The notes beneath the pieces were generated by a model, which worked only from the letters and a program-made list of their open reading frames with translations, ran no database searches and was not told the origin of the DNA. A program made the translations under genes and the position numbers. Below, piece by piece: positions 1 to 16,111 of a DNA stretch of 64,000 bases; position 1 is the stretch's first letter, and every line of letters begins with the position of its first letter. The stretch is from an uncultured Chloroflexia bacterium (GTDB lineage Bacteria > Chloroflexota > Limnocylindria > Limnocylindrales > CSP1-4), in the NCBI GenBank assembly GCA_963813535.1, contig CAWEZH010000002.1, forward strand, positions 1,120,573 to 1,184,572. Direction: 5' to 3'.

Positions 1-129
1 CTGAGGGTCAGTTCCACGCGCCTGGCGCGTACTCCGGCTTCGATCGCTCGGCGGCCGGTACCGCGCCGGGAGTCATCCTTACCTATGTCGAGCGATTGAC
101 AGCCCGGTGCCTCCCGTACACTCGGCTCC

Positions 130-840
130 GTGTCCGAACCGGCGACTCCAGAGGGCTCGGCTGATGCCACCAACGAGGAGCGCGCTCTTGAAGAGCGGCG
201 TCGTCGTGACGAGCGAGTGCGGACCGTACAGACGATGCTTCTCTTCGCCTTCGTGGGGGCGGCCATCGCCATCTTCATCGCGGCGTTGGTTTGGCTTGGG
301 GTCCGATTCATCGGCGAGGCGCTCGTGCCCGCGGCGCTCATCGCCGCGATCGGCTTCCTCCTCGGTGAGGTCGTCCGGCTGGCGTTCGGAGAGATCCGGT
401 CGAGTCGGGACGAGGCGCGCCTTCGCGTGCGCGAGGCGGAGGAGCGAGCACGAGCGTGGCGGCTCGCCCTCCTCGCGGACGCGCAGCGGCTGGTGGAGCG
501 CGAACTGGATGCGATGCGGGCCCAAATCAACGGCGACACCCCGCCGGATCGTCCACGGCGGGCGACATACAGGCGGATCGACCGACTGGAGGCCGGCTCG
601 AGGATACGCAACGAGCTTGAGGCGCTCGCGACAAGGGTTTATCAGCCGGAGAAGGCCGGAACGAGGGACCAAGAACTCTTGACGGAACTCAACTTCAGCG
701 AAGATTGGATGACCACTGTGCTCCGCGTCCTGGAGGAACGCACCGTAGACAGTCAGTGGCCGAGTCGACTGGAGACCGTGGAAGTCGAGGTACCAAGAAA
801 CTACCAGGGATATGACGGGTTCAACGATCCTCCGGACTAA
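130..840 (+). CDS. hypothetical membrane/coiled-coil protein (GTG start)
   Basis: Plus frame has strong GC3 bias and two hydrophobic helices (LLFAFVGAAIAIFIAALVWL, ALIAAIGFLLG) followed by a charged coiled-coil segment. The overlapping minus-strand ORF 79..846 has poorer codon usage and is treated as a shadow. Confidence 0.5.
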   Translation: MSEPATPEGSADATNEERALEERRRRDERVRTVQTMLLFAFVGAAIAIFIAALVWLGVRFIGEALVPAALIAAIGFLLGEVVRLAFGEIRSSRDEARLRVREAEERARAWRLALLADAQRLVERELDAMRAQINGDTPPDRPRRATYRRIDRLEAGSRIRNELEALATRVYQPEKAGTRDQELLTELNFSEDWMTTVLRVLEERTVDSQWPSRLETVEVEVPRNYQGYDGFNDPPD

Positions 841-960
841 CGGCACTCACGTCACCGCCCCACCGTGACGGCTCGCGGCGATAGACAAGCGTTCGGATCG
901 CTCCCTACGTAGGGACCTGGGCCCCTCGCTGGCAGTCGGTAGCTCGTCGCCTCGAAATCG

Positions 961-1025
961 CCCCGGCTCCGGTCCCGGACCTTCGATCCCACCTCGGTGG
1001 CCATTCCGTCCGGGCCGACGGGGCA
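961..1025. repeat. interspersed ~65-bp GC-rich repeat, copy R1 (consensus CCCGGCTCCGGTCCCGGACCTTCGATCCCGC..GGCCAGTCGGTCCGGGCCGACCGGGCA)
   Basis: Near-identical sequence recurs at 1711, 2958, 7685, 8289 and, more divergently, 10066. It contains the perfect palindrome GGTCCCGGACC. It is intergenic, just downstream of the 130..840 gene and of the flp-like gene. Confidence 0.55.
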
Positions 1026-1122
1026 CCGCTTGGGCTTTCTGGTCGCCCAGTTCGTGCGACGTCGTACCCAACGACAGGCTCCGGCTCTGCCGGGGCCTTG
1101 TTGTCGTGAAGCGTTGGCTGAT

Positions 1123-1299
1123 CTAGACCGAGCGGCCGACCGTGCTCAGGATCGTGCTGACCTGGCTACCCAGAACGACGAGGGCGATGATGGCGATGAT
1201 GGCGATAAGCGCGAGGACGAGGGCATATTCGGCGAGGCCCTGGCCTTCGTCGTCGCGGCGGAGCGACCGGATGAGCGAGTAGACGTGCGTCATGGGCAT
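1123..1299 (-). CDS. Flp family type IVb pilin (58 aa; absent from the supplied ORF track because it is under 60 aa)
   Basis: Translation is MPMTHVYSLIRSLRRDDEGQGLAEYALVLALIAIIAIIALVVLGSQVSTILSTVGRSV. It carries the Flp-pilin signature G-x-G-x-x-EYAL followed by a hydrophobic helix. A GGAGAGAGGA Shine-Dalgarno sequence lies upstream and GC3 is high. Confidence 0.6.
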   Translation of the reverse strand: MPMTHVYSLIRSLRRDDEGQGLAEYALVLALIAIIAIIALVVLGSQVSTILSTVGRSV

Positions 1300-1417
1300 C
1301 CCGTGGTCCTCTCTCCTGCCGGTCGCTGGCGGTCACCCTCACGCTAGCCGCGACCCCGCGAATGGGCCATCCGTACTTAGGTCATGTGCAACGACGGCCA
1401 TCACGGTCGCGGCCGCT

Positions 1418-1694
1418 TTACGTTTCGATGTCGAAGCTGTCCGGCGACACGTCCAGCCATTGGGCGATCGCCGCCTTGGCAGCTTCCAGGGCGTCCCGGC
1501 GACTCGTCGCACTTACCGCCAGCCACGGTAGGGGCGTCGACGTACCAGCGGCCGTCCTGGGCGGTCGAGATGCGATATCCGGGTCGGTCGCCTCGAGCGA
1601 TCATCCGCCGGCTCGCCTGGGCCACTGCCTCCCGTTGACGCGCCTCGCTCATCCGTCGTGCCACCCGGCTTAGTCTGGGTGAAGCACCGTCACC
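1418..1694 (-). pseudogene. HicB-like (UPF0150 family) antitoxin-like ORF, internally frameshifted; no hicA partner
   Basis: Two minus-strand frames together read ...MIARGDRPGYRISTAQDGRWYVDAPTVAGG / SATSRRDALEAAKAAIAQWLDVSPDSFDIET*. This resembles the HicB core (beta-strand-rich N-terminus with a Y..G.Y/W...P.L.G motif, then EA..n.keAi..l). A 1-nt frame change is required near 1530. A partial second copy lies at 6827..6990. Confidence 0.35.
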
Positions 1695-1710
1695 CTAGCT
1701 TGTCAACCAG

Positions 1711-1781
1711 CCCGGCTCCGGTCCCGGACTTGCGATCCCGGTGTTCCCCCCGCCGGGCAGCTCGTCCGGGCCGTCCGGGCA
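1711..1781. repeat. interspersed GC-rich repeat, copy R2
   Basis: The sequence cccggctccggtcccggacttgcgatcccgg...gtccgggccgtccgggca matches R1, R3, R4 and R5. It lies immediately upstream of the small ORF at 1847. Confidence 0.55.
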
Positions 1782-1846
1782 ATCTATTGGGCTCATCGCG
1801 GTGCGAAGATGCCTCCGTCGGCGCAAGCAATCGGAGGTCGGGCGGC

Positions 1847-2101
1847 ATGAGCGACCAGCAGGCGGGGCCGAACGTCCGGCGCCTCGCGTTCTTCGAGGAA
1901 CTCAGCGGCATCACCTTTCAGTTCGGCGAGGAGCCGGACGGCCAGTGGACGGGCAGGGCGGACAGCAAACAGTGGACCGCGGCCCACGTCGAACGCGGAC
2001 CCGACGCGGAGGCCGCCGGCGCGAAACTCATCGCCTGGCTCGAGGAGAGCGGCGAGTTCCTGCCCGAGCCGCCCGACACCTTCTGGCCGTGGGCGCGATG
2101 A
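1847..2101 (+). CDS. small hypothetical protein (84 aa)
   Basis: ATG is preceded by a GGAGGT Shine-Dalgarno sequence 9 nt upstream. GC3 is high throughout and the ORF ends in TGA. Translation begins MSDQQAGPNVRRLAFFEELSGITFQFGEEPDGQW and no family was recognised. Confidence 0.5.
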   Translation: MSDQQAGPNVRRLAFFEELSGITFQFGEEPDGQWTGRADSKQWTAAHVERGPDAEAAGAKLIAWLEESGEFLPEPPDTFWPWAR

Positions 2102-2140
2102 CCCGCCCGCGGGCCGCGCGAAGTTCGCCTAAGGCAGTAT

Positions 2141-2356
2141 CTAGGGTCGGACGCGCTTCTCTCGCTGCGTGGCGATCCAGGCCCGGCTCGCCTCCCAGTA
2201 CGCCGACCCGCGCTCGATGCGGTCCCGCGCTGCCTGGACTTCCCACGCCGCGATCCAGGCGTCGGCCGTCGCCTCGGTCACGCTCCCGTCCTCGGCCCGA
2301 GGGCCCCGGCCAACGACTCTCTGGAGAAATGGCCGGGCCTCTTCATCGCTCCGCAC
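2141..2356 (-). CDS. small hypothetical protein (about 71 aa, GTG start; start uncertain, may extend upstream)
   Basis: High-GC3 frame reads VRSDEEARPFLQRVVGRGPRAEDGSVTEATADAWIAAWEVQAARDRIERGSAYWEASRAWIATQREKRVRP*. It lies downstream of the ABM-like gene in a different frame. Confidence 0.3.
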   Translation of the reverse strand: MRSDEEARPFLQRVVGRGPRAEDGSVTEATADAWIAAWEVQAARDRIERGSAYWEASRAWIATQREKRVRP

Positions 2357-2471
2357 CGGTCGTTGGTCCCGGTCCGGGCCGACCGGGTGGGGCGGGAGCC
2401 GGACCCGGCCGATGTCGAAAGCGTCGGGCGCGACTGCGAGCCAGTCGATATCAGCGCCCGTGCCTGTCCAC

Positions 2472-2885
2472 TCAGACCCGATCGGCCACGCTAACGCCAC
2501 CGGGGCTAGGCCGGACGAACCCCGCATTGAGCGGATGCACCGTGACTCGTGCGTCACCCAACAGGTGCGCTTTCTCGCGAAGCTGCGCCACGACCTCGTC
2601 CGTCGGATCCCCGTACACGTCGATCGACTGCAGGCGAACCAGATCAACGAAGTTCCGGAACGCCGGGCCGGCCACCCGGAAATGGGTCGCGAGCGACGCG
2701 GCGTCGGCATGAACGTGGACCACTGAGATCGTCCTGTGATCCTCGTCGAGATACGCGGCGTACGAGATGATCCGTGGCTCATCAGCCTCGACGAGGTCCA
2801 CTAGTTCGGTGATCCGCTTGGTCAGCTCACCGAGACGGCCCTCGACGATCTCGGAGCGGTCGACGTATACGATCGGACCAGACAC
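2472..2885 (-). CDS. ABM (antibiotic-biosynthesis-monooxygenase/Dabb-like) domain protein
   Basis: The 137-aa ORF has the pattern IVYVDRSEIVEG...ISYAAYLDEDHRTISVVHVHADAASLATHFRVAGPAFRNFV, typical of small ferredoxin-fold ABM proteins. Codon bias is good. Confidence 0.5.
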   Translation of the reverse strand: MSGPIVYVDRSEIVEGRLGELTKRITELVDLVEADEPRIISYAAYLDEDHRTISVVHVHADAASLATHFRVAGPAFRNFVDLVRLQSIDVYGDPTDEVVAQLREKAHLLGDARVTVHPLNAGFVRPSPGGVSVADRV

Positions 2886-2957
2886 AGCGACCTCCGTGCG
2901 CGCGATCGGACGTCACCAGAACGCGTGCGTGTAGAGGCATACTCCTACACCCACCCG

Positions 2958-3024
2958 ACCCGGCTCCGGTCCCGGACCGTCGATCCCGCTCCCGCGGCCA
3001 GTCGGTCCGGGCCGACCGTGGGCA
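2958..3024. repeat. interspersed GC-rich repeat, copy R3
   Basis: The sequence acccggctccggtcccggaccgtcgatcccgctcccgcggccagtcggtccgggccgaccgtgggca lies between two minus-strand genes. Confidence 0.55.
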
Positions 3025-3110
3025 AGACCCAGGCGCAGCATCCCCTCCTGCAGGCCTCGCGTAAGAGCCGTTTCCCGCCGACGACTTCGATATGTCTTTT
3101 CGAGCCCGCC

Positions 3111-3479
3111 TTACGCGCTCTCTACAGCGAGGGGTTCGAAGCTATATGTCCCAGTCCAATGCCATAAGCCGTCCGAATCCGCCGTAACGTTGGCGTGGGC
3201 CTCGAATCCAGCGAACTTCCCCGTCCCTCCCGAGAACGTCGCCGTCCCCTTATTGGCGGCAAGATCGAGTACGACGTGGCCCGTCGCAGTGTTGGCGGCT
3301 CCCGCGTCGAGGACGACGTCGGTGTCAAGAGTGCCCTCGCTCGCCGCCTCGGCGTAGATGACCTTCGCACCCGCTCCGATCTCGTCGAGGTTCGAGGAGG
3401 TGATCGTACAGAAGTCACCGGCCCGGCCCGTGTATTCCGAGCACTCTTTGGTGACCTGGAGATCCCCGCTGCGAGCCAT
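3111..3479 (-). CDS. hypothetical protein (122 aa, Gly/Thr/Ala-rich)
   Basis: The ORF begins MARSGDLQVTKECSEYTGRAGDFCTITSS... and has good GC3. The longer track ORF 3111..3791 has an improbable N-terminal extension. Confidence 0.5.
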   Translation of the reverse strand: MARSGDLQVTKECSEYTGRAGDFCTITSSNLDEIGAGAKVIYAEAASEGTLDTDVVLDAGAANTATGHVVLDLAANKGTATFSGGTGKFAGFEAHANVTADSDGLWHWTGTYSFEPLAVESA

Positions 3480-3747
3480 AGCGACCCTCCTTCTCGCAGT
3501 CCGTCGCCAATCAGCGCGACACCGGGACTCTACACCCGGTGCGTTGTGGGCCAGCCACGCGGATCTTGTCGCCCGCCATGACAGCCGAGGCAATCCCCTA
3601 CCTCGTTTGGAGACATCTGCCTTCAGCGGCGCGACACTGTGCAGACGTCTCACGTCGAGATGCTCTCGGGCCGCGCAAGAAGGACTAGGAGGCCCAGCAG
3701 GCGGCGGAGTCGCTCGTAGCCCAAGCCGAGCGACTCGGCGATGCGTG

Positions 3748-4020
3748 TCAGTAGATGCCCACGAACAACCGGCGCGGCGGTTCGTCAGCATCGAGGCCGG
3801 CGCTGAGGTCGGAACTGACCGGGTCGCCCGCGTCCCGCGGATCGATCACAACATGGTGCAGGCGCCAAAGGGCCTCCTGCTTTGGGTCGGTCGACCAAAC
3901 GTGCGAAAGACGTACCTGAGCTCCAAGCTGGGACACGTACTCGACTGTCATGACGAGCCACGGGTGCTCCCACGCACCGCTTGGCAGGAGCAGATCGCTG
4001 ACCTTGACGTATAGCTCCTC
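3748..4020 (-). CDS. small hypothetical protein; possible -1 frameshift at the 3' end continuing into an HTH-like segment
   Basis: The frame reads ...VDEELYVKVSDLLLPSGAWEHPWLVMTVEYVSQLGAQVRLSHVWSTDPKQEALWRLHHVVIDPRDAGDPVSS... A second frame downstream (3650..3750) reads LLTRIAESLGLGYERLRRLLG, suggesting an indel. Confidence 0.3.
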   Translation of the reverse strand, partial: EELYVKVSDLLLPSGAWEHPWLVMTVEYVSQLGAQVRLSHVWSTDPKQEALWRLHHVVIDPRDAGDPVSSDLSAGLDADEPPRRLFVGIY

Positions 4021-4157
4021 GTCTACGCCGGCAGCAATCGCTGCGAGGTTAGCGAGACGACGTGACGGCTACGTGGTCGGACTATCCTCCTGGCCAGTGG
4101 GCCATGGTGAGCATCCGGACGCAGCGCAGCATGCGGCCCGTCGCCAAGGAGTCTCGA

Positions 4158-4892
4158 ATGGGCACCCGCGGGGTCCTGTCCCTGATCATGTGCTTGCCGT
4201 TAGCGGGCTGCATGAACAGCACACCGAACCCGCCAGCCGGCCCAACGGCCGCGGCGATCGCGACGGTCGCGACGACGGCTTCGGTGCCCACCGCCGAAGC
4301 GACACCGACCACGACACCAGTGACGCCGAAGCCCGATCTGACCGCGGAGCCGACACCTCGGTGGTCGAAGCTCGAGCGGGCGATCCGGGACAACATTCGT
4401 GACGACGCGGCGGTGGGTTGCGCGCCGAGACGCCACGATCTCCCGCCGGGCACGGTCGCGGCCGTCGAGTGCAGGCCCGGCGTGGCCCTAGTCAGTCGTG
4501 TCGGCTTCTACCTCTTCGCCTCACCGGACGACGCTTTCGCTGTCTACCTCGACCGCGTCAAAGAACAGGGCTTGGCGCTGAACACCGAGCGAGGCCTTCG
4601 CGGCTGGGAACGCGCCATGTACATCTGTAGCGACGAGCAGTGCGCGGAGCGCGACGCCGGCTTCGTAAATAGCGACGGCTACGCCAACTATCGATCCGTC
4701 ATGGGCGCCATGTACATCGGCGTCTTGGGCACACGTGACGACATCGAAGACCTCAGGGGTTGGGCATGGGAGAGCCGCGAAGAATGTCCGCCGGGGCCGG
4801 ATACATGCGCGGTTCCAGAAAGCCCGAGCCTCTATTGCGACGGCTCGCGCGTCGCCGCCGACGCCTCGTGCGTTGAACCCGTCAGCGCCTAG
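4158..4892 (+). CDS. lipoprotein (Ser/Thr/Pro-rich linker, then a Cys-rich domain)
   Basis: An AAGGAG Shine-Dalgarno sequence lies 7 nt upstream of the ATG. The N-terminus MGTRGVLSLIMCLPLAGC contains an LAGC lipobox, followed by a PT-rich linker and a conserved-looking C-terminal domain with several Cys. Confidence 0.65.
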   Translation: MGTRGVLSLIMCLPLAGCMNSTPNPPAGPTAAAIATVATTASVPTAEATPTTTPVTPKPDLTAEPTPRWSKLERAIRDNIRDDAAVGCAPRRHDLPPGTVAAVECRPGVALVSRVGFYLFASPDDAFAVYLDRVKEQGLALNTERGLRGWERAMYICSDEQCAERDAGFVNSDGYANYRSVMGAMYIGVLGTRDDIEDLRGWAWESREECPPGPDTCAVPESPSLYCDGSRVAADASCVEPVSA

Positions 4893-5168
4893 GCGACCGG
4901 GCCCCCGCTGGACTGGAGTAGCCGCTAGGGCACGCAGATTTCGATGCCGACCTTGTATGCGCACCCACTGGATGACCAGGCCGCTAGAGACAGCAAGAAC
5001 ATGGCCGGCAGCGTCAGCAGCGTGAGCAGTCCGGCTACCAATGTCAGCCCGATAGCGGTGCGGTGCCCGGCACCGGAAGCCCCCGCGAGCGGGCCGGGCC
5101 GGCGTCGTCGCCGGCCGATGACCCTCGGGTCTACCTAGCGCGTTGAGGAGGCTCCACCTTGGCTGCGC

Positions 5169-5618
5169 CTACGGCACCCTCGTCGTCTCAACCGACACAT
5201 CAAACCACCCGACATCGGGGGCATAGTCCGTGGCAACCACCCGACCATCCTGGATCACCGACGCCCATACGTAGAAGGGCCGGTGCTCCAGGCTCATGCC
5301 GATCGTGCCAGTGGGCGTGTCCGACTCAAAGAAGAAGCGGCCATGAAACATTGCTTGAAAGCGGGTCTCGCCAACGTAGTCAGGGTCGCGTCCCTGTAGC
5401 GTCGTTCGACCAGTGTGGAGATCGGTGATCCACGTCCGATAGTGGTCCCAGCCCGCCACTGTCTCGGGCGTGTTGTCCTTCCCGACCCGCCGGTCGGGGA
5501 CGCCGTCGCGATCGTCATCAAAGACAACGCCATACGCGATCCACTGCTCGGTGGGATCCACGTCGGGTGGGAATTTGGGGAGTGTGAAATATAGCACCCG
5601 CCTCATACGAGCCCGCAC
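5169..5618 (-). CDS. hypothetical protein (149 aa)
   Basis: Intact ORF with good codon bias. Translation includes MRARMRRVLYFTLPKFPPDVDPTEQWIAYGVVFDDD... and no family was recognised. Confidence 0.5.
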   Translation of the reverse strand: MRARMRRVLYFTLPKFPPDVDPTEQWIAYGVVFDDDRDGVPDRRVGKDNTPETVAGWDHYRTWITDLHTGRTTLQGRDPDYVGETRFQAMFHGRFFFESDTPTGTIGMSLEHRPFYVWASVIQDGRVVATDYAPDVGWFDVSVETTRVP

Positions 5619-5643
5619 CTCCTGGATGTCGACCCATGGGAAG

Positions 5644-6189
5644 TCATCGGATCCGGTGTCGCCCGACGGATCGATGTGTCGGCCTGGCGGTGGCGCTAGG
5701 TAGCGTCGGTCCCCGAGATCTCTGCTTCACAAGGATCGGCACGAGGATCGCGCCTCCGGCGGGCTCGGTGCGAACCGGCGCGGGCCAGTCCTCCTTCAGA
5801 CTCGCCTCGGTCCACAGGATCGGCGTGGGCGTGGGGCTGGGCGTCGCCGTAGGCGTCGCGCTGGGGCCAACCTGGGCAGACTCGCTGGGATCCGCGCTTG
5901 GCGTCGGGCTCGGACCGCCGACCGCTGATGGGTCGGGCCGGTTCACGTAGTACAAGCCGCCGAGCGCAAGCACGGCGATGACCGCGGCCGCAACGACGCG
6001 GGCCGGCAGCGTCATGGTCGGGAGCCTCGCCGGGGCTGACCACCAGGCGAACCTACGGGGCTGCGGGCGCCCAGCGGCCACGGCCATGATCCGCTGATAG
6101 AGATCGTCCTCGCCGCCGACGTCGGCGGCGCGTTCTCGAAGCGCCGCGGCGAGGTCACTGGCGACGCTGTCCTGGCTGCGCCTAGTCAT
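5644..6189 (-). CDS. putative membrane-anchored anti-sigma factor
   Basis: It lies immediately downstream of the ECF sigma gene with a 4-nt overlap. It has an N-terminal cytoplasmic segment, one TM helix (VVAAAVIAVLALGGLYYV) and a PT-rich extracytoplasmic tail. The call rests on position and topology only. Confidence 0.5.
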   Translation of the reverse strand: MTRRSQDSVASDLAAALRERAADVGGEDDLYQRIMAVAAGRPQPRRFAWWSAPARLPTMTLPARVVAAAVIAVLALGGLYYVNRPDPSAVGGPSPTPSADPSESAQVGPSATPTATPSPTPTPILWTEASLKEDWPAPVRTEPAGGAILVPILVKQRSRGPTLPSATARPTHRSVGRHRIR

Positions 6190-6749
6190 GCTTGAGTCTC
6201 CAGAGCCCGATCTAGGGATTTGCGTGCGGCGTGAAGTCGCGACTTCGCCGTGCCCACCGGGATGCCGAGCCTATGAGCGATCTGTTCGAGCGGCTGATCC
6301 AGGAGGTGGTGCATGGCGAGGATCTGGCGATCTGCGATGGACAGTCGGTCGAAGGCCGCAAGGACGGCGGCTCGCTCCAGCGCCGCCGGGCCGGGATCGG
6401 CCTGCTGGAGGTCGGCGCCTTCGAGGGTGATCTCCCGCACGCGGCCTCGATTGCGGAGGTGGTCGCGGCAACGATTGGCGAGCACAGTGTTCAGCCAGGC
6501 GCTGAAGCGGCGATCGTCCCGCAGCCGAGGGAGATTGAGCCAGGCTGAAACGAAGGCCTCCTGCGTCGCATCGCGGGCATCGGCCTCATTGCGCAGGATC
6601 GACCGGGCCAGGCGCAGCATGTCGGGCAACCGGGCCGCCACAAGGGCGCCGAACGCCTCCGCGTCGCCGCGACGGGCTCGCGCCACGAGCGCGTCGTCAG
6701 CGGCGTCAGACCCGTTGTGCACGGTCTCTGTCAGTGCCACGGGAAGCAT
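6186..6749 (-). CDS. ECF (sigma-70 family, group 4) RNA polymerase sigma factor
   Basis: The N-terminus ARARRGDAEAFGALV is followed by region 2 (FVSAWLNLPRLRDDRRFSAWLNTVLANRCRDHLR) and region 4 (LSIADRQILAMHHLLDQPLEQIAHRLGIPVGTAKSRLHAARKSL). Confidence 0.85.
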   Translation of the reverse strand: MLPVALTETVHNGSDAADDALVARARRGDAEAFGALVAARLPDMLRLARSILRNEADARDATQEAFVSAWLNLPRLRDDRRFSAWLNTVLANRCRDHLRNRGRVREITLEGADLQQADPGPAALERAAVLAAFDRLSIADRQILAMHHLLDQPLEQIAHRLGIPVGTAKSRLHAARKSLDRALETQA

Positions 6750-6826
6750 GGTCGCGGCGGGAAAGGTTCCATGCTAGGTACGACGTCTGGCGAGTCGCCC
6801 GGGTTCGACCTGATTTGTGTTGTGTA

Positions 6827-6990
6827 GGGCGTCGACGTATCAGCGGCCGTCCTGACCGGGCATGAGGCGATATCCGGGGCGGTCGCCTCGAGCGATCATC
6901 CGCCGGCCAGCCTGGGCCGTGGCCTCCTGTTGTCGCCTCGCTCGTCCGTCGTGCCATGCGGTCAGTGTGGGGTGAGCGCGACACCAAGGC
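6827..6990 (-). pseudogene. partial second copy of the hicB-like segment (N-terminal portion only, in-frame TGA)
   Basis: About 85% identical to 1532..1700. It translates as MARRTSEA...QAGRRMIARGDRPGYRLMPGQDGR*YVDA, with a stop where copy A has Trp. Confidence 0.35.
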
Positions 6991-7071
6991 TGTCACCACC
7001 CCCAGGCGCGTGCCGCGCTTGTACGCTTGTAGCACCTCCTATTCGGCGGTCGTACTCATTTTCTGACACGG

Positions 7072-7614
7072 GTGGAGCCGGAGAGTGGTAACGCTGCCTT
7101 CCATTTCGCGTCATTGGATCGGATGGCGCTCATGGAACGATCGAGACCCACGCAACGTCGGTCCCGTCGAAGGTGGGTGCCGTGGCTCGTCGCGGCCGCG
7201 ATCGGTCTCGGCCTGATTGGTTACGGCTTCACATACGCTCCGCCGCCGACATCGCTCAGCTTGACCGGGAAGGTCTGGCAGTGGACTGCGTACGGCGATG
7301 ATTCCGGCACGGTCCCAATCGAGGATCCTGAGCGCTACACCATCGTCTTCAACGAAGATGGGACCGCGGTCGTCACGGCAGACTGCAATCGATCGCCGTG
7401 GAGTTACACGATCGCAGGGTCCTTCCTACGACCCACGATATGGCTGCAATCGCACGCGGAAGAATGGTCCCCGTGCGCGCCAGGCTCTAGGGCTCAGCTC
7501 TTTGTTGATCACCTGTGGCCGACCGACACATTCAGTGTCTCGGCCGATCGCCTGGAACTCGATCGGGACCACTACGGAATCAGTTGGGCCCTCACGCTCA
7601 AAGCGTCTCCCTGA
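7072..7614 (+). CDS. membrane-anchored META/HslJ-like (DUF306) domain protein
   Basis: One N-terminal TM helix (WLVAAAIGLGLIGYGF) is followed by a domain with YTIVFNEDGTAVVTADCNRSPWSYTIAGS. The start codon is uncertain (7072, or a later in-frame ATG in MALMERS...). Confidence 0.5.
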   Translation: MEPESGNAAFHFASLDRMALMERSRPTQRRSRRRWVPWLVAAAIGLGLIGYGFTYAPPPTSLSLTGKVWQWTAYGDDSGTVPIEDPERYTIVFNEDGTAVVTADCNRSPWSYTIAGSFLRPTIWLQSHAEEWSPCAPGSRAQLFVDHLWPTDTFSVSADRLELDRDHYGISWALTLKASP

Positions 7615-7684
7615 CGGCTCGAGCATTCGACCGGCGGGACATGGCGACACGTGTGGGACAACGGCCAACAGGTAGGGTGTCATC

Positions 7685-7758
7685 GCCCCGGCCCCGGTCC
7701 CGGACCTTCGATCCCGGCTATCCCCCCGCCGGTCAGTCGGTCCGAGCCAACCGAGGCG
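7685..7758. repeat. interspersed GC-rich repeat, copy R4
   Basis: The sequence ccccggccccggtcccggaccttcgatcccggctatccccccgccggtcagtcggtccgagcc lies directly upstream of the SnoaL-like gene at 7775. Confidence 0.55.
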
Positions 7759-7774
7759 ATCGGGAGGGTCCGCG

Positions 7775-8131
7775 ATGCTCCGAGCCGAGGAAGCCTACGA
7801 GGGATACGAGCGGGCGTGGAACGAGCCCGGGCGGGCGGCTGCTCTTCTCGAAAGGGTCTGGGCGCCGGAGGGTGTCTACGCCGACGACGACGTGCCAGAC
7901 GGTGTCGTCGGGCCCGTGGCGCTCGCCGCCCTCATCGTCGAGACACATAAGGCGCTGCCGGGCTTCCGGGTCTGGGCGACGAGCGGCCCGCGGATGCTTG
8001 CGGAGCGCATGGCGATCACCTGGGCGGGGGAAGGAGGCGACCCGCCGATCCCGCAGGCCGGCACCGATGTCATCGAGTTCGGCCCTGACGGCCGGATCAC
8101 CCGCATCACGGACGTGCTCGACATCGACTGA
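7775..8131 (+). CDS. SnoaL-like/NTF2-fold (ketosteroid-isomerase-like) protein
   Basis: The 118-aa ORF has the NTF2-like pattern (EEAYEGYERAWNEPG...; C-terminal GRITRITDVLD) and size of that fold. It is weaker than the paralogs at 9677 and 15702. Confidence 0.55.
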   Translation: MLRAEEAYEGYERAWNEPGRAAALLERVWAPEGVYADDDVPDGVVGPVALAALIVETHKALPGFRVWATSGPRMLAERMAITWAGEGGDPPIPQAGTDVIEFGPDGRITRITDVLDID

Positions 8132-8288
8132 CCAGGCCGGCGGAGACAGTCCGGCCTGGTGACGGCATCCAGGCGCAGATGGCGAGGATGGAAGCCAGAG
8201 GTATCACCGATACGGACGCGATGCTCGAGGACGCGGCCTGCTTTCTCCTTGGAGTCTAGTGTGCGGGCCGCGGCCGCTGGCCTGTCAG

Positions 8289-8355
8289 CGCCTCGGCTCC
8301 GGTCCCGGACCTTCGATCCCGCTTCGGCGGCCAGTCGCTCCGGGCCGACCGGGCA
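8289..8355. repeat. interspersed GC-rich repeat, copy R5
   Basis: The sequence cgcctcggctccggtcccggaccttcgatcccgcttcggcggccagtcgctccgggccgaccgggca is present here. Confidence 0.55.
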
Positions 8356-8497
8356 CTGCGCCTCAGCCAAACTTCGACCTAGACAATGCAAGCGGGCTAT
8401 CGACTTTCGGCGCGGCGCCGACACGTGGCCGATGACGCGAAAGAGGCGCGGATAGACAGGGGGTCTAAGCTGGTCGCACGTCACGGGGGACGTCGCG

Positions 8498-9362
8498 TTG
8501 CCGTCAAAGGAAACGCAGACGGGCGTGGGGATACTCATCGGCTTGGTCGTCCTCATCGCCCTCGCTCAACTTGTTATCGCCGCTCCGGCCTGGTCAGGCC
8601 CGGGACCTCGACCGGCGATCTTGGTCCCCCCCGTAGCCGGCGTCACGCCCGAGACGCCCACACCCGGGCGTGTTCCGTCCACTCCAGCGCCGGCCACTCC
8701 AGCCCCTGGCGTGGCCGTCGTTGAATTGACCCGGTCCACAGCGGACGCGGGACCGATTGATCTGCAAGCTGGCGGATCATCGTCACCGCCAGCGCCGACT
8801 CCGAGCGGCTTGGCGACGCCTGCCCCCTTGTCGTCACCGCCAGCGCCGACTCCGAGCGGCGTCGCGACGCCACCCCCCGGCGAGGTTTCCTTCCCGACTT
8901 CGCAGCCGACGCCGCCCGCGGCCTCGCCCACGCCCGACCCGACGCGGCCGCCATCGCCGCCACCGACTGCAGCACCGACCCACCAGCCCACGCGGGCGCC
9001 CACACCGCCGCCAACGCCGGCGCCGACGCCCAACCCAACGCCGGCGCCCACGCCCGCCCCAACACCGGATCCGACGCCGGCCCCGACACCGGATCCAACG
9101 CCGCCGCCGACGCCCGACCCAACGCCGGCACCGACACCCGATCCGACGCCGGATCCGACGCCGGCCCCGACACCGGATCCAACGCCGCCGCCGACGCCCG
9201 ACCCAACGCCGGCACCGACACCCGATCCGACGCCGGATCCGACGCCCGACCCGACGCCGGCCCCGACACCGGATCCAACGCCGGATCCGACACCCGACCC
9301 CAACGCCGGAACCGACACCCGATCCAACGCCGGATCCCACGCCCGAGCCGCAGCCCGGGTAA
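8498..9362 (+). CDS. secreted/membrane-anchored Pro-Thr-repeat protein, frameshifted near 9296 within the repeat (likely true stop at 9362)
   Basis: An N-terminal hydrophobic segment ([23 protein letters not shown]) is followed by about 40 PTP(D/A) units. A C-run (cgaccccaacg versus cgacccaacg) shifts the frame, and the +2 frame continues [20 protein letters not shown]. Confidence 0.55.
8900..9340. repeat. tandem degenerate 12-nt repeat (CCGACNCCGGAY)n encoding (PTPD/PTPA)n
   Basis: Directly visible in the sequence. The antisense and alternative frames give the spurious GSGVG-repeat and Arg-rich ORFs in the track. Confidence 0.8.
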
Positions 9363-9676
9363 CGTCGGTCCCCAGAACTGGGCCCGCTAGCCTTTCGACC
9401 GCCGCGGGTCCGGTCGACCGATGGTGTTCTGCAACCCTGGCGCGCGTACATCGCCCGGTCACCGGGGGCGCGTTGACGAAGCCATCGGTGATTGGGTCGG
9501 TTGCCCGGTGCGGCTAGGAAGTCGGAGTCATCGTCCGGGCCGTGGGTCTAACTTGACAGTGAGGCTTGCCGCGGTCGTCGTCCCAGGAGCGAGTCGCCAC
9601 CGATGATTGCCAAGCTCGGGGTACGGTCGCAAGATGACCGTCCGTCGCAGTCCGAACCACTGGGAGGAGCGGAGAG

Positions 9677-10066
9677 ATGGCGCATCCGAACGAGGATCTG
9701 GTCCGTCGCGGTTTTACGGCGTTCGGGACCGGAGACATCGCGACGCTAGGCGAGTTGTTCGCCGACAACATCGTCTGGCATGTCGGTGGACGCAGCCCGA
9801 TCACCGGGGATTACAAGGGCAAGGAACAGGTCTTCGGGTTTTTTGCCCAGCTCGCCGAACGGGCTGGGGGGACTTTCCGCCTTGACATCCACGACGTGCT
9901 GGCGAACGACGAGCATGTGGTCGCGCTGGTCAAGGCGACCGGGGAGCGCCAAGGGAAGACGCTGAACAACAACGGAGCGCAGGTCTTCCATGTGCAGGGT
10001 GGAAAGGTCACCGAGGTGTGGTTCCACCCGGACGACCAATACGCCGGCGACGACTTCTGGAGTTGA
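9677..10066 (+). CDS. SnoaL-like/NTF2-fold protein (paralog of 15702..16076)
   Basis: Translation includes LVRRGFTAFGTGDIATLGELFADNIVWHVGG..DEHVVALVKATGERQGKT...VFHVQGGKVTEVW, the characteristic SnoaL-like pattern. A GGAGCGGAGAGATGG-type Shine-Dalgarno sequence is present. Confidence 0.7.
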   Translation: MAHPNEDLVRRGFTAFGTGDIATLGELFADNIVWHVGGRSPITGDYKGKEQVFGFFAQLAERAGGTFRLDIHDVLANDEHVVALVKATGERQGKTLNNNGAQVFHVQGGKVTEVWFHPDDQYAGDDFWS

Positions 10067-10140
10067 CCCGGACCGAGCCAACTCTCGATCCCGGCTGCCA
10101 TCGCCGACGGCCGGTCAGTCAGCCCGGGCCGACCGGGGCA
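10066..10140. repeat. divergent copy R6 of the interspersed repeat
   Basis: It shares ctcgatcccggct...gccggtcagtc.gcccgggccgaccgggg with R4 and R5. It lies between the SnoaL-like gene and the tRNA fragment. Confidence 0.4.
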
Positions 10141-10215
10141 TTCATTGAGCAGTTAACAACGGGCACATCGCAGGGTGGCCCACTCACGGGAGCACGCCGC
10201 GTTGAGCCGGACATT

Positions 10216-10253
10216 TTAGAAGGCGCCTGCTCTGTCCACTGAGCTACGGGGAC
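10216..10253 (-). tRNA. truncated tRNA-Arg(TCT): 5' half only (acceptor 5' strand, D-arm, anticodon stem 5' strand and loop); 3' half absent
   Basis: The minus strand reads GTCCCCGTAGCTCAGTGGACAGAGCAGGCGCCTTCTAA. This is near-identical in architecture to bacterial tRNA-Arg(UCU) up to position 38, after which the complementary anticodon-stem strand, T-arm and acceptor 3' strand are missing. Confidence 0.6.
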
Positions 10254-10322
10254 GTCGTTAGCGCCTCAGCATACGCACGAAAACCGCCGGATCGACCTTG
10301 GCTCGTTGACGACCATCCGTGA

Positions 10323-10991
10323 TCAGGTCCTCTTGAATGTCCCGTCGCACGTCCGGTTCGTGGCATCAAGCACGTGAGTGAAGATCTTCTTGTTGTTATC
10401 CATGTCGTTATGCGGGACCCCGGGGTCCTCAAAGACGTGGCACGCGCCGCCATCGAGCCGCGATGAGTTGTTCGAGACGACACCATCGGTCCGGCTGTAG
10501 ATCGTGGTCCAGTAAACGTGGGTCGGCGTGTCGTCACCGGCATTGAGACTGCGCAGGAATGACCTCGACGGGCACATCTGGCCACCCTGCGACGAGAACA
10601 GCAGGCATGTCCTGAGTAGCCCGTACTGCGGGGTCCCAAGTGACACGTAGGTGTCGACTCTGGAGGTGCCGATCGTCTTGATGAAGTATCGAGCGCTCAG
10701 ACCGCCCATGCTCTGCGCCACGATGTCGACGTCATCCCAGCCTTTGCTGGTGATGAAGTCGCGGATCGCCTGGGCGTTCTTGATGTTGTCCTGGCCCGGC
10801 AACCGAATCGCTTCTGCCTGGCGGCCGGCGAGCCTGAAGCGGTCGATCATCTCGGCCCATGTCGACGGGCTACCTCGCCACCCATGGACGAGCAGCACCG
10901 GATCGTTCTTGGCGGCTGCCGCCGTGCTCGGCGCCATCGCGACTGCCAGGATTCCCAAGATCGGCACCAGGATCCACCGCGTCGCGCGCAT
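10323..10991 (-). CDS. secreted triacylglycerol lipase/esterase, lipase class 2 family (Bacillus LipA/EstA-like)
   Basis: A GGGGAGGGG Shine-Dalgarno sequence precedes the ATG. A signal peptide (MRATRWILVPILGILAVAMAPSTAAAA) is followed by VLLVHGW, the nucleophile elbow DIVAQSMGG, WTTIYSRTDGVV and SRLDGG. These match B. subtilis LipA blocks (VVMVHG, DIVAHSMGG, YTSIYSSADMIV, SRLDGA). Confidence 0.85.
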   Translation of the reverse strand: MRATRWILVPILGILAVAMAPSTAAAAKNDPVLLVHGWRGSPSTWAEMIDRFRLAGRQAEAIRLPGQDNIKNAQAIRDFITSKGWDDVDIVAQSMGGLSARYFIKTIGTSRVDTYVSLGTPQYGLLRTCLLFSSQGGQMCPSRSFLRSLNAGDDTPTHVYWTTIYSRTDGVVSNNSSRLDGGACHVFEDPGVPHNDMDNNKKIFTHVLDATNRTCDGTFKRT

Positions 10992-11172
10992 GTCGGCCCC
11001 TCCCCATTCGACGGTGAGCAGTACCGCGGAGGGTACCCGCACCCCGGCGTGGGTGGAATAGCACAGGTGACGCCACAGCGTGGCGTCGACGTTTCCGGCG
11101 GTACAGGCGTTCTAGGCCGCGCCGCTGACGGGGTACGCTACGGGCGTTGGGATCAAGAGCCGGGGAGGACCC

Positions 11173-11841
11173 ATGACCGACGAAAGCGCGCGCTCACGGC
11201 GCGCAGTCCTTGCTGCCGGTCTTGGTGGCGTAGCCGCGGCAGCAACCGCGGCCGTCATACGGCCTGCCGCGGCCCTCGGCGCCAACGGCGACAACGTCGT
11301 GCTCGGACAGGCAAATACGGCGACGGCGGCGACGGCGATCCAGAACACGGGGACGGCCGATCCGGACACGCTCGTGGTCGATAGCCAATCGGGCTTCGCT
11401 GTCATCGCGAGGAGCGAGGACGGAAGCGGCATCGAGGGCCAGGCCCCGAACGGGCTGGGCGTATCCGGACTCGGACAGGTCGGGGTCGTCGGGGAGGGAA
11501 CTGAATCGGGCGTTCGGGGCATCAGCTCCGGTAATGGGATCGGGGTTTTCGCGACGACGGAGACCGGGCTCGCACTCCTCGTCGACGGCAAGGTGGGCCT
11601 GACGCGGAGCGGCAGGGTCTCAGTCGCACGAGGCAAGGGATCCGTCGACATCACCATCCCCGGCGGCATCACCAGTCGGACGGTCGTCATGGCGACCCTC
11701 CAACGGTATCGCACCGGGGTCGCGATCGCGGGTGTCAACCTTAACTGGCCTAGCGCCGGCAAGGCCCGGATCTATCTCACGAAGATCCCGTCGACCACGA
11801 CGACGACGCCTGTCGCGTGGATCGCTACGGAACTCCCGTAG
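11173..11841 (+). CDS. Tat-signal secreted hypothetical protein
   Basis: A GGAGGA Shine-Dalgarno sequence precedes the ATG. The N-terminus contains SRRAVLAAGLGGVAAAATAA (twin-arginine motif plus h-region), followed by a Gly/Ala-rich beta-type domain. Confidence 0.6.
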   Translation: MTDESARSRRAVLAAGLGGVAAAATAAVIRPAAALGANGDNVVLGQANTATAATAIQNTGTADPDTLVVDSQSGFAVIARSEDGSGIEGQAPNGLGVSGLGQVGVVGEGTESGVRGISSGNGIGVFATTETGLALLVDGKVGLTRSGRVSVARGKGSVDITIPGGITSRTVVMATLQRYRTGVAIAGVNLNWPSAGKARIYLTKIPSTTTTTPVAWIATELP

Positions 11842-11953
11842 CGTTTCGCCGCCTCGCGCCCTTGGACGCAGCGAGCGCGTCCCCGGGCACTGCGATGCCG
11901 TTCCTCTGGTCGGACCCGACGTAGCCGCCGCGGGGCTTACCTGCGGCGCGGGT

Positions 11954-12187
11954 CAGTCGAGCTTCCCCGTCGCGATCCACCGGCCGAAGAGCTCGACCTT
12001 GTCGGACGACCAGCCGCCGTCACACGGCATCGTGCCCTGCCGGAGACGACCGAGGATCGCCTCGGCGTTCGACCGGACCGTCAACCTCCCAGAGATCGAA
12101 GGCGAAGGCCATGGATTCGCGGTCCCTGGGTCGAAACAGGGGCTTGATGTGCTGCGCGAAGCTGACCGGTCGATCGGCGTCTGCCAT
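11954..12187 (-). CDS. small conserved-looking hypothetical protein with an apparent 1-nt frameshift near 12070
   Basis: Frame A reads MADADRPVSFAQHIKPLFRPRDRESMAFAFDLWEVD. The +1 frame continues TVRSNAEAILGRLRQGTMPCDGGWSSDKVELFGRWIATGKLD*, and both halves have good GC3. Confidence 0.35.
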
Positions 12188-12282
12188 GGTCGCGGTGATC
12201 TCCTCGTGCTTCGATCTGGATGTTGAGAGCACCAGGCAGGGCGGTCAGGTTCTTCGCCGCCTGCCTGGTGCCTCGCTCAGGA

Positions 12283-13179
12283 CTAGGCGAACCGCTTGAC
12301 GAAGTCGAGCGCGGTCTGGGCGACCTCGCGCCAGCCGTGGTCGATGGTGAGGGAGTGGCCTCGGTTCGGGATCTTCACGATCTCCGTCACGCCGGGGTTG
12401 CGCTTCTGCCGCTTGTAGGCGGCGTCCGCGATCGCCCATGGCACCGTGTGGTCCTTCTCTCCCTCGATGATCAGCAGCGGGCCGCGGTCCGGGTTCTTCG
12501 TGTCCACCTTCGCTTCGGTCCACGGATTGAGGTTCGCGTTGCCCATCTGCGCGAGCGAGATCCCGGAGGCGGCGACATGGAACTTGTCGTAGAGCTCCAT
12601 GGCCTCATCCTCGTCCAGGTTGTTCGTCCAGGCGTATCGGAACTGGTCGAACGTGAGCGTCAGCGCGCGGCCGCGATTGCGCGGGTTGATCAGGAACGGG
12701 CCGGCCGACCTGAGCACCGACAGCGGCAGCGGCAGAACGCCACGGAAGACTCCCGGGTCGATCGCCACGGTGACCGCCGCGAGCCCCTGCCCCGCGAGCA
12801 TCTCCGCGAGCAGACCGCCCGTCGAGTGGCCCATGACCACTGGCTTCCTGTCGAGGGCACTGATGATCTGGGTCGTGTGATCGGCCACCTGCTTCAGGGT
12901 CTTGTTGGCGAGGACCTCGGGCTCCGCACGGGCTTCCTCGACGGTTTCGGGATCATCAGGCCAGTCTGGCGTCAGCGCGACGTACCCAGCTTCCTCGAAC
13001 AGCGCGGCCCAGTTGTCCCAGCTCGAGGGCAACAGCCACAGCCCGTGGATGAAGATCACCGGTGTCGCCGTGGTCGCGTTCGCGCGCTCGATCTGCTCGC
13101 GCTCGCGATCGGAGATCGTCGCGCCCTCTCGATCCTGAGGGGCCACGGGCAATTCGGCCTGTGCAGACGTCGTGTTCAT
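12283..13179 (-). CDS. alpha/beta hydrolase fold protein
   Basis: Translation contains VIFIHGLWLLPSSWDNW and the nucleophile elbow GHSTGG, plus C-terminal acid/His regions. Confidence 0.8.
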   Translation of the reverse strand: MNTTSAQAELPVAPQDREGATISDREREQIERANATTATPVIFIHGLWLLPSSWDNWAALFEEAGYVALTPDWPDDPETVEEARAEPEVLANKTLKQVADHTTQIISALDRKPVVMGHSTGGLLAEMLAGQGLAAVTVAIDPGVFRGVLPLPLSVLRSAGPFLINPRNRGRALTLTFDQFRYAWTNNLDEDEAMELYDKFHVAASGISLAQMGNANLNPWTEAKVDTKNPDRGPLLIIEGEKDHTVPWAIADAAYKRQKRNPGVTEIVKIPNRGHSLTIDHGWREVAQTALDFVKRFA

Positions 13180-13198
13180 CCTTCGACTCTCCTCTCGT

Positions 13199-13996
13199 CT
13201 AACGGGCAGCTGCCGCCGCCGGAACAGATGCGTTCTCTCGGAGCCAGTCGTCGAGACGGATCTCGCCGAGCGTCGCGTCCGGGCCCGGGACGAGCGTGCG
13301 CTCGGCCAGGGGAGCCCCGAAGTACCGCGCCTGCGGGTCCGTCAGGATCTCGCGCGGGTCGTCCTTCGCGCCAAGTACTCGCCGGATGAGCGTGTCGAGG
13401 CGGAACTGCTCCGGGCCGCCGACCTCGACGATCCGGTTCGCTGCGGTCCCTGTGGCAGCGCGAGCGACCGCCGCGGCAACGTCCTCGGCCGCCATCGGCT
13501 GGACCAGTGCCTCGGACAGGTGGATCGTGTCGCCATGCGTCGCGTCATCGGCGATCTTGTCCACGAACTCGAAGAATTGGGTGGCGTGGACGATGGTGTA
13601 GGGGATCGGCGACGTCTTGATCAGGGTCTCCTGGGTGAGCTTCGCCCAGAAGTAGCCGGCGATCGTCGTCGTCAGGTCGGCGCTCTGCGCCAGCTCCTTG
13701 GTGCCGACGACCGATAGGGCGACGTGGTGACCCACGCCGGCCTCCTCCTCGGCATCGCGAAGGTTGGTGGTCGACTTTCCGAAGAACTCGATGGCCGGAG
13801 CGAAGTCGAACGATGGTGAATTCGACACGTCAACCACGACTGAGGTGCCCTTGAGCGCTGCCGCGACCCCTTCGCCGGTGATCGTGTTGATGCCCAGCCT
13901 GGGCGATGCGGGGACGGTCTCGTGGCCGTCTTCCTCGAGCTTGGCGACGACCTTCGAGCCGATCAGCCCGGTGCCGCCGATGACGACGATCTTCAT
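13199..13996 (-). CDS. NAD(P)-binding NmrA/atypical SDR family oxidoreductase
   Basis: Start chosen at MKIVVIGGTGLIGSKVV, a Rossmann GxxGxxG motif. The 405-aa track ORF has a low-quality N-terminal extension that was rejected. Confidence 0.8.
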   Translation of the reverse strand: MKIVVIGGTGLIGSKVVAKLEEDGHETVPASPRLGINTITGEGVAAALKGTSVVVDVSNSPSFDFAPAIEFFGKSTTNLRDAEEEAGVGHHVALSVVGTKELAQSADLTTTIAGYFWAKLTQETLIKTSPIPYTIVHATQFFEFVDKIADDATHGDTIHLSEALVQPMAAEDVAAAVARAATGTAANRIVEVGGPEQFRLDTLIRRVLGAKDDPREILTDPQARYFGAPLAERTLVPGPDATLGEIRLDDWLRENASVPAAAAAR

Positions 13997-16076: not shown

Positions 16077-16111
16077 AGGAAAGCACGGCCCGCCGCTCAG
16101 GGGCCAACGCC

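Follow-up and report, generated by a model that had tools for sequence, protein, structure and literature searches.

What are the short GC-rich repeats that punctuate the first 10 kb of a 64-kb stretch of DNA from an uncultured Chloroflexia bacterium (assembly GCA_963813535.1, contig CAWEZH010000002.1; the whole 64,000 nucleotides are called the window below), and what do they do there? An earlier note on this DNA had listed six copies and proposed for them a mobile repeat of the REP (repetitive extragenic palindrome) or MITE (miniature inverted-repeat transposable element) kind, a terminator or small-RNA family, or binding sites of one regulator. The repeat proved to be a previously undescribed hairpin element of ~70 bases which no described family matches. 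It belongs to tRNA-integrating mobile elements of Limnocylindria-type Chloroflexota and to their integrase-less islands, in which it separates modules of cargo genes. Limnocylindria are abundant uncultured bacteria of soil and freshwater, and to our knowledge nothing is known of gene exchange in them.

A polar hairpin family of Limnocylindria

The window was scanned with the 25-nt core CTCCGGTCCCGGACCTTCGATCCCG at up to 3 mismatches, together with a shuffle control (n = 100). Matches were seen at 967, 1716, 2964, 7692 and 8297, all on the + strand, and none in the 100 shuffles. A covariance model built from these five good copies was run unfiltered on both strands of all 64 kb. It recovered the five copies at 79–90 bits and a sixth at 10061–10144 (24.5 bits, E 0.002); no credible match was observed beyond 10,145 on either strand, the next-best scoring 20 bits at 46185. 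The window thus has six copies, five strong and one decayed, which all lie on the + strand before 10,145, and the earlier note had placed them correctly within a few bases. Its statement that the other 54 kb contain no copy agrees with the two-strand search, which gave nothing convincing there, and our own gene calls leave all the window copies intergenic, as it had said. The hairpins and one remnant are listed below.

960–1024, + strand: hairpin copy 1, with the short apical stem CCAC/GUGG (covariance model 89.7 bits; RNA fold −37.2 kcal/mol, z −2.2)
1668–1780, + strand: hairpin copy 2 (1710–1780, long apical stem) with a conserved leader of ~40 nt, ...TTAGTCTGGGTGAAGCACCGTCACCCTAGCTTGTCAACCA (84 bits; fold −49.7 kcal/mol, z −5.8)
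2349–2394, + strand: remnant copy with an internal deletion that joins a partial 5′ arm to the 3′ arm (exact GTCCGGGCCGACCGGG at 2372; 14.5 bits, weak)
2958–3021, + strand: hairpin copy 3 (86.2 bits; RNA fold)
7640–7756, + strand: hairpin copy 4 (7686–7756, long apical stem) with the leader ...CAGGTAGGGTGTCATCG (79.3 bits)
8291–8354, + strand: hairpin copy 5 (88.4 bits)
10066–10138, + strand: decayed copy 6, its 5′ arm gone, its internal loop (CGATCCCGG...CAGTC) and 3′ arm retained (24.5 bits, E 0.002, alignment)

The unit is an imperfect hairpin of 65–75 nt, and the same fold was obtained for all five good copies of the window. From base to tip it consists of a CCCCGG/CCGGGG stem, a bulge CUC, a CGG/CCG stem, a single bulged U and A, and a CCCGGAC/GUCCGGG stem. 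Above the latter lies a conserved internal loop (..CGAUCC / CCAG..), followed by a variable apical stem-loop with the stem CCGC/GCGG, CCAC/GUGG or the longer CCGGY/RCCGG. The apical stem-loop measures 4–29 nt and takes 76 distinct sequences among 117, and it is still paired (minimum free energy −4.5 kcal/mol vs −1.5 for shuffles). The earlier note had seen in each copy a perfect palindrome, GGTCCCGGACC, and a second hairpin-capable block. The palindrome is present in four of the six copies (that at 1711 has ...GGACT, and that at 10066 is without the 5′ arm), and the second block is exact in the copy at 2958 alone and near-exact in the rest. In the folds the two blocks do not form separate hairpins: one is the 5′ arm and the other the 3′ arm of the same long imperfect hairpin. 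The 3′ edge of the unit is razor sharp, the information content being zero four bases past GTCCGGGCCGACC, and on the 5′ side conservation fades gradually. A leader of ~40 nt (consensus gATAAGtCtgcGgTAAGCggCGACaGCTAGGCTGtCAcgG) precedes ~40% of the copies, as judged by eye. An unpaired conserved CTTCGATCCCG in the internal loop (for example at window 8312–8321) resembles the T-loop plus T-stem of tRNA, TTCGAATCCCG, minus one base; this likeness may be a coincidence. Other candidate likenesses are those of the arms to Streptomyces TraB recognition sequences, and those to pSAM2 arm-type sites and to CRISPR-repeat mimics.

An exact-pattern scan over one genome per species gave 77 loci, most of them in metagenome-assembled genomes (MAGs) labelled "uncultured Chloroflexia" (Microflora Danica) or Candidatus Limnocylindrales. 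The covariance model counted 95 copies in the genome loci (558 kb) and a further 96 in metagenome contigs from soil and sediment (266 kb). The family is lineage-specific, its ~190 further copies lying almost all in Limnocylindria-type Chloroflexota MAGs and in soil and sediment metagenomes. No Rfam family reached its gathering threshold on any copy (the best sub-threshold match was sul1, 20.9 bits vs a threshold of 36.2), and the sole match to reach threshold in the Rfam search of the window was a tRNA-Glu. A literature search on integrative elements of Limnocylindria found nothing. The repeat is a discrete, structured interspersed element, as the earlier note had supposed, and not pieces of longer unrelated conserved sequence; it also recurs in related genomes.

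Copies were intergenic in 95 of 101 cases, and the configurations of their flanking genes were mixed (same/same 25, opposite/opposite 22, convergent 22, divergent 12), with many copies abutting the 3′ end of a convergent gene; convergent genes flank copy 1 of the window, for instance. Within an array the hairpins point the same way. All 25 metagenome contigs with more than one copy are co-oriented, and so are 20 of the 21 such genome loci, which gives 45 of 46 loci; the array of the window is co-oriented too. The copies are polar at the level of DNA, irrespective of gene orientation. The GC skew on the hairpin strand was −0.002 ± 0.002 across 54 loci, and replication-strand bias as the cause of the polarity was rejected because no local link to GC skew exists.

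tRNA attachment sites and the island of the window

Hairpins are also polar relative to the element that carries them, with the 5′ end towards the tRNA or integrase end and the 3′ end towards the distal attachment (att) repeat. A tRNA gene was present in 20 of 56 family loci vs 1 of 19 control loci, and the 5′ end of the hairpin faced it in 21–22 of 23 loci. Two configurations were observed. At 17 loci the hairpin lies 3′ of the tRNA gene and is co-oriented with it; in the strain group of the window and in loci L032, L046, L065 and L042 it lies 5′ of the gene on the opposite strand. In either configuration the 5′ end of the hairpin is turned towards the tRNA. At most tRNA loci a 34–60-nt direct repeat of the 3′ part of the tRNA (of the 5′ part in the second configuration) closes a hairpin-containing island of 1–7 kb. 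The smallest islands (L002, ~1 kb; L009, 1.9 kb) contain fragments of other tRNAs, which points to mosaic origins. In the tRNA-Arg(TCG) island of L009, the 3′ end of a different tRNA (1225–1280 in the − strand reading; T arm GTAGGTTCGAATCCTAC and CGCCGGAGCCA) lies ~60 nt past the hairpin and is evidence for the movement of modules between different tRNA sites.

An intact integrase was seen in L081, the only match from a viral collection, an IMG/VR contig of 9.8 kb with an HK97-type capsid gene and a tape-measure-like gene. The order in L081 is small open reading frames (ORFs), hairpin, 89 nt, tRNA-Met 5′ half (reverse), 130 nt and a 310-aa Xer-like tyrosine integrase (Phage_integrase, 1e-31). 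The window repeats this order and polarity with copy 6, a 77-nt spacer and then the 5′ half of tRNA-Arg. Truncated homologues of the L081 integrase lie beside the tRNA in L032 and L046. In several of the 3′-side islands the hairpin is followed by 2–7 nt, two element-specific direct repeats, ATAGGGGCGCACGAC and the tRNA 3′ half, an order that reads as the grammar of arm-type sites. tRNA halves are enriched 77–160 nt downstream of hairpins, and where an att arm is recognisable the hairpin stands at its outer edge, ~80–100 nt before the tRNA-derived core.

The L081 integrase has a very large family, with 6046 database proteins at E ≤ 1e-40. Eight of its loci (L206–L213) were inspected. Each has a tRNA gene (Lys-TTT or Met-CAT) ~130 nt from the start of the integrase gene and divergent from it; integration duplicates the tRNA 5′ half in L206–L208, and the remaining five loci showed no repeat of this kind. 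None of the integrase or transposase families occurred more than once among the 109 element-locus proteins that were 230 aa or longer, and ten island genes checked singly gave only one truncated serine-recombinase domain (L043); a recurrent recombinase near the repeats was rejected.

The same organization was found in the window, where the following features come into play.

1–10282, no strand: distal ~10.3 kb of a composite island of ~13 kb (strain comparison, GC, coding scores, cargo)
3632–4042, no strand: strain-specific segment of 411 nt (breakpoint comparison with L078, L079 and L080)
10139–10215, + strand: spacer of 77 nt between copy 6 and the att core, with the motifs TGAGCAGTTAAC and CACTCACGGGA in common with the L081 and L076 spacers (L076, 82.7% over 75 nt)
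10216–10282, − strand: distal att repeat, nt 1–37 of tRNA-Arg(TCT) (5′ end to anticodon loop) with ~29 nt of its upstream flank (sequence match)
2141–2280, − strand: C-terminal remnant of a recurrent protein family of ~73 aa (motif PERIFEARRAAVRN...ETAERWCDAWE...YW.AGW.WI..ER)

Contigs of related strains match window 1–3631 and 4043–10938 (L078 and L079 at 97–99%, L080 at 93–98%). An intact tRNA-Arg(TCT) gene is present in L078 and L079; L078, a strain 98–99% identical, has it about 2.66 kb to the left of where the window begins, with one further hairpin in between. Over 38 nt the repeat at 10216–10282 agrees perfectly (100%) with the intact L078 tRNA-Arg(tct), and over 67 nt it is 97% identical to a second L078 fragment. 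ARAGORN called no tRNA at 10216–10282, and the fragment is not a functional tRNA. This fragment, 77 nt past the last copy, is the key to the setting of the repeats, and the earlier note had not noticed it. The intact gene in L078 and the 5′-half repeat together make window 1–10282 the distal part of the island. A tRNA with its partial repeat, by which a tRNA island is recognised, is thus found for 1–10282, the tRNA itself lying outside the window. No integrase stands next to it: the L081 integrase gave no tblastn match in the window or L078, and Phage_integrase was absent from the called genes of L078–L080. The island of the window has lost its integrase.

In place of 3632–4042, L078, L079 and L080 have a segment of 768 nt, with an extra hairpin (L078 7600–7673), an ORF of ~150 aa and a second tRNA-Arg 5′-half repeat; the variant segment begins exactly at the 5′ base of this hairpin. 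Segment 3632–4042 itself gave a weak match to L026 alone. A stretch of 364 nt in the first ORF (363–726) is present in L078 and absent from L079 and L080. GC content is 0.65–0.68 in window 1–17000 vs 0.70–0.72 elsewhere in the window, and coding-potential scores are much lower in 1–10 kb. The lipase-like gene at 10323–11042, just beyond the att repeat, has a 93% DNA match within another island (L057 3396–4159). Together with the low GC up to 17000, this match suggests that the variable region may extend past 10.3 kb.

The cargo of the island is mostly orphan and without Pfam matches; an extracytoplasmic function (ECF) sigma factor, SnoaL-like and META-domain proteins were also found. The ~73-aa family occurs in 10 island loci (the window, L005, L008, L017, L033, L035, L052, L053, L060 and L069) and has no Pfam or PHROG match. 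Its genes are antiparallel to the hairpins in 11 of 11 cases, and this suggests that the family belongs to the backbone of the mobile element. A decayed small gene (MIARGDRPGYR...DGRW.VDA...) is present twice, at 1532–1641 and 6827–6936, the two copies being 86% identical. Intact relatives of this protein, ~60 aa long and likewise without a Pfam or PHROG match, adjoin hairpins in L057, L063 and L074. At 1123–1299 (− strand) a hydrophobic ORF of 58 aa looks by eye like Flp-type pilins (...GQGLAEYALVLALIAIIAI...), although its Pfam record is empty; an identical protein is present in four contigs. The + strand ORF at 8498–9362 is Pro/Thr/Asp-rich and made of 12-nt periodic repeats, with long ORFs on the opposite strand too, and its reading frame may shift near 9300. 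Outside the island, tandem GGNCAR units with periods of 6–18 nt encode a Gly/Gln-rich repeat at 38082–38339.

Module boundaries and candidate roles of the hairpin

Hairpins separate the cargo modules and mark their boundaries. Of the ends of homology blocks, a fraction of 0.27 lie close to a hairpin arm, vs 0.13 expected for random positions. A methyltransferase module of 875 nt is common to two arrays (L015 and L033) of one MAG, and the alignment runs from a hairpin to a point exactly at the 3′ base of a half hairpin. In the window, the upstream flank of copy 2 is homologous to that of L057_5805. At copy 5, ~130 nt upstream are conserved with L057_1567 and ~1 kb downstream with L052_1860; the ~1 kb at 8294–9332, from copy 5 into the Pro/Thr/Asp-rich gene, is 74% identical to L052. 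Among BLAST pairs that share a flank, 18 share the upstream flank only and 7 the downstream flank only, none being in both lists. Hairpin identity is 0.80 within an array vs 0.79 between genomes, so the arrays are made of independently acquired variants and not of local duplications. Spacing within arrays ranges from 0.23 to 4.7 kb, some arrays being spaced at ~230–340 nt, and the dense ones often contain half elements and decayed copies. The 5′ and 3′ triplets that define subfamilies are tightly linked (CTT-TCG, TCG-CCT/CCC, CCG-CCC); exchange inside the hairpin is thus rare, and crossover within it was rejected.

We put the probability at about 45% that the hairpin is a polar cis-acting DNA junction or recombination site for the gain and shuffling of cargo modules that would be analogous in operation to the attC sites of integrons. 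Cargo modules would be joined, lost and reshuffled at this junction. The partner in recombination would be the folded strand or a directly repeated copy, and the enzyme either the Xer-like tyrosine integrase of the element or a host recombinase. Arrays would grow co-oriented because such recombination keeps the sites in direct orientation, and would accumulate unrelated hairpin variants and unrelated cargo. A bolder form of the proposal, which appears unlikely to us, is that the hairpins are the sites of a second, independent gene-cassette system, in which the Xer-like recombinase of tRNA-integrating elements would capture and reshuffle cargo at a folded hairpin other than attC and so give polar arrays anchored at tRNA genes.

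Several observations weigh against a DNA junction. Hairpin identity is 0.78 in upstream-sharing (n = 17) and 0.79 in downstream-sharing pairs (n = 7), equal to background, and co-inheritance of the hairpin with one flank, as expected if a cassette owned its hairpin, was rejected on this ground. Near-identity of L015 and L033 begins ~40 nt past the hairpin, and block boundaries lie only approximately at hairpins. No circular junctions and no clean presence/absence variants of cassettes were found, and no recombination event at a hairpin was caught directly. Coding sequence lies on the hairpin strand in 51%, so that cargo ORFs are not co-oriented with the sites as they are in integron cassettes. 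Recognisable att arms follow only ~6–8 of 200 hairpins. Eight integrated elements with 73–78% identical integrases, each beside a tRNA, are without the hairpin; the integrase therefore does not need it. The idea of the hairpin as an obligatory part of attP in the L081 integrase family was rejected, given these eight loci and the viral relatives L083 and L084, which lack it too, and L032, with a single att pair but three hairpins, also counts against a simple attP role. The stems are conserved in sequence and covary weakly (nine pairs with double changes, most cells identical), because stem sequences are almost invariant; the excess of G-U over A-C at paired positions (69 vs 44) is marginal, with one column responsible. 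Finally, a co-oriented gene comes next in 19 of the 30 copies that carry a TAnnnT box vs 20 of the 59 that do not, which favours an RNA or promoter role for at least part of the family.

Such a role would make the hairpin an RNA-level module. The leader would be a promoter with TAnnnT as its −10 box, and the hairpin either the 5′ end of a transcript (a stabiliser or regulatory stem of the next gene) or a stand-alone RNA of ~70 nt that ends at the hairpin base. Arrays and polarity would then be by-products of island assembly, and the gene regulated in the phage-like element would be the integrase. The box (typically TAGGCT) lies 5–11 nt before the hairpin in 30 of 89 copies, or in 20 of 176 by the strictest criteria, and holds a fixed distance in the leader consensus. 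Besides its association with co-oriented genes, several copies stand directly before a ribosome-binding site and start codon, among them copy 4 of the window, 13 nt past which lie the ribosome-binding site and ATG of a 118-aa ORF. A sharp 3′ edge behind a fuzzy conserved 5′ region is what a promoter with a short RNA would produce, the apical stem varies with its pairing kept, and in L081 the module points at attP and the integrase, the hairpin being followed by TCTCTTTTTG, a T-run. However, orientation is unrelated to the flanking genes, many copies facing the 3′ end of a convergent one, ~60–65% of the copies are without leader, and no sigma-70-type promoter or U-tract terminator was called at any window copy. 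Rfam gave no match, and covariation was dropped as support for RNA, the stems being near-invariant and the weak G-U excess coming from one column. Nor does a transcription unit explain why over 20 independent islands keep a fixed polarity towards the att site. We regard the RNA-level module as rather unlikely, though it is the chief rival of the junction. The terminator or small-RNA identity of the earlier note fits poorly for the same reasons of orientation, U-tract and Rfam, although the TAnnnT box keeps an RNA reading alive; its binding sites of one regulator would not explain why the hairpins keep one polarity with respect to the tRNA attachment site.

The arrays could also arise with no recombination at hairpins at all, if the att arm of each element had a single hairpin at its outer edge, as insulator, terminator or architectural site, and repeated integration at the same tRNA pushed older elements outward to decay, leaving hairpins as their most durable relics. 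The order hairpin, spacer, core recurs in L081, the window, L076, L018, L055, L120, L145 and L153; tandem att repeats in L078, the foreign tRNA fragment inside the L009 island and the diverse hairpin variants within one array agree with such accretion, and the same logic has been described for tycheposon islands (10.1101/2020.12.28.424599). Yet there are more than ten hairpins for every recognisable att core or arm, L032 combines its single att pair and one integrase remnant with three hairpins, and spacings of ~230–340 nt exist. Moreover, the window copy beside an intact att repeat is the most decayed, the opposite of hairpins outlasting cores, and related integrative elements are without the hairpin. 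We consider this account improbable. More improbable still, to our judgement, is a selfish non-autonomous repeat (MITE-, REP- or PATE-like, the last being palindrome-associated transposable elements) that is mobilised by a transposase encoded elsewhere and tolerated in islands. Its short, intergenic, multi-copy nature and arms that form inverted repeats would suit, and strand-specific orientation without target-site duplications is compatible with single-strand transposition of the IS200/IS605 type: in 151 copies the longest flanking direct repeats equalled those of re-paired controls. But no empty sites, with presence or absence of the element only, were seen in collinear alignments of ~200 loci, a limited data set; no transposase or recombinase family recurs among the 109 proteins; and on either side of a tRNA gene the polarity tracks the att site and not replication direction, with no GC-skew link. 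Copies in an array are as diverged as those of different species, which speaks against a recent local burst, and a unit of one hairpin, its 3′ edge exactly at the stem base, is unlike the paired left and right ends of IS200/IS605 derivatives. The REP/MITE identity of the earlier note fits poorly as well, the repeat being without target-site duplications, empty sites or a GTAG-type head, confined to tRNA-linked islands and strictly polar.

Both the junction and the RNA reading are directly testable with existing soil metagenomes and metatranscriptomes. If the hairpin is a recombination site, it would be a new class of substrate for Xer-like recombinases; if it is an RNA, a new mobile regulatory module. 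The covariance model and the att grammar give a sequence handle to find such islands, to delimit their modules and to ask if cassette-style capture arose outside integrons.

Comparison with known systems

Among the known systems, integrons offer a close parallel in operation. An attC site is an imperfect hairpin (60–140 nt) with extrahelical bases and a variable terminal structure, and the present hairpin has these too (bulges CUC, U and A). Co-oriented arrays with cassette-sized spacing are also shared (45 of 46 loci, 0.23–4.7 kb). CALINs are clusters of attC without an integrase. The islands resemble these in ORF-sized, mostly orphan cargo, in the frequent lack of a nearby integrase, in diverse variants per array and in one sharp site edge. 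The feature that defines attC is the conserved AAC/GTT triplet in the R″/R′ boxes (PMC4889954). Here the base is CCCCGG...CCGGGG, a conserved AAC...GTT is missing from these positions, and neither at the 3′ edge nor beyond it is GTT conserved. Cargo ORFs are not co-oriented with the sites, coding sequence being at 51% on the hairpin strand with mixed neighbours. No IntI, the integrase at the head of an integron array, was identified among the 109 proteins, in a Pfam summary of the 25 commonest families that single matches could escape. tRNA genes anchor the arrays described here and tRNA-half repeats delimit them, and the sole intact hairpin-linked integrase is the 310-aa Xer-like enzyme, not IntI. 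Recombination at these hairpins is proposed from sequence comparison. The hairpin is not an attC, but it may work like one.

REPs are 20–40 nt long, have a conserved GTAG-type head and occur genome-wide in hundreds of copies, typically as inverted pairs. The hairpin has in common with REPs and bacterial interspersed mosaic elements, which are served by REP-associated tyrosine transposases (RAYTs), and with IS200/IS605-derived palindromes, that it is a short GC-rich extragenic palindrome, strand-specific and without target duplications. It differs in that the unit is 65–75 nt, single, found in direct arrays only and confined to islands, and within the element loci neither a RAYT or TnpA gene nor a recurrent transposase was seen. 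MITEs are set apart by target-site duplication and empty-site polymorphism, both absent from the copies and loci compared above. An intrinsic terminator is not indicated either: none was called at any window copy, the T-run is at the L081 copy only, and orientation is independent of genes. The sib/tI of lambda is a hairpin beside the phage attP, in the 3′ region of the integrase gene. The likeness is a conserved stem-loop just outside an att arm that integration separates from, or joins to, the integrase gene; here, however, the hairpin precedes the integrase gene and is directed at it, is multi-copy and is absent from closely related elements.

Tycheposons of Prochlorococcus are tRNA islands with serial integration in which older elements are pushed outward (10.1101/2020.12.28.424599). 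Like these and classical tRNA islands, the present islands keep an intact tRNA at one boundary, with partial tRNA repeats in the interior and at the opposite boundary. Their integrases are fragmented, their cargo varies and their composition is atypical. They differ in that integration can use the tRNA 5′ half (anticodon loop to 5′ end) besides the 3′ half, and in the polar hairpin that punctuates the cargo; the published description of tycheposons mentions no hairpin (10.1101/2020.12.28.424599). The logic of the islands thus matches the known accretion of tRNA islands, and the polar, cargo-punctuating hairpin is the new part.

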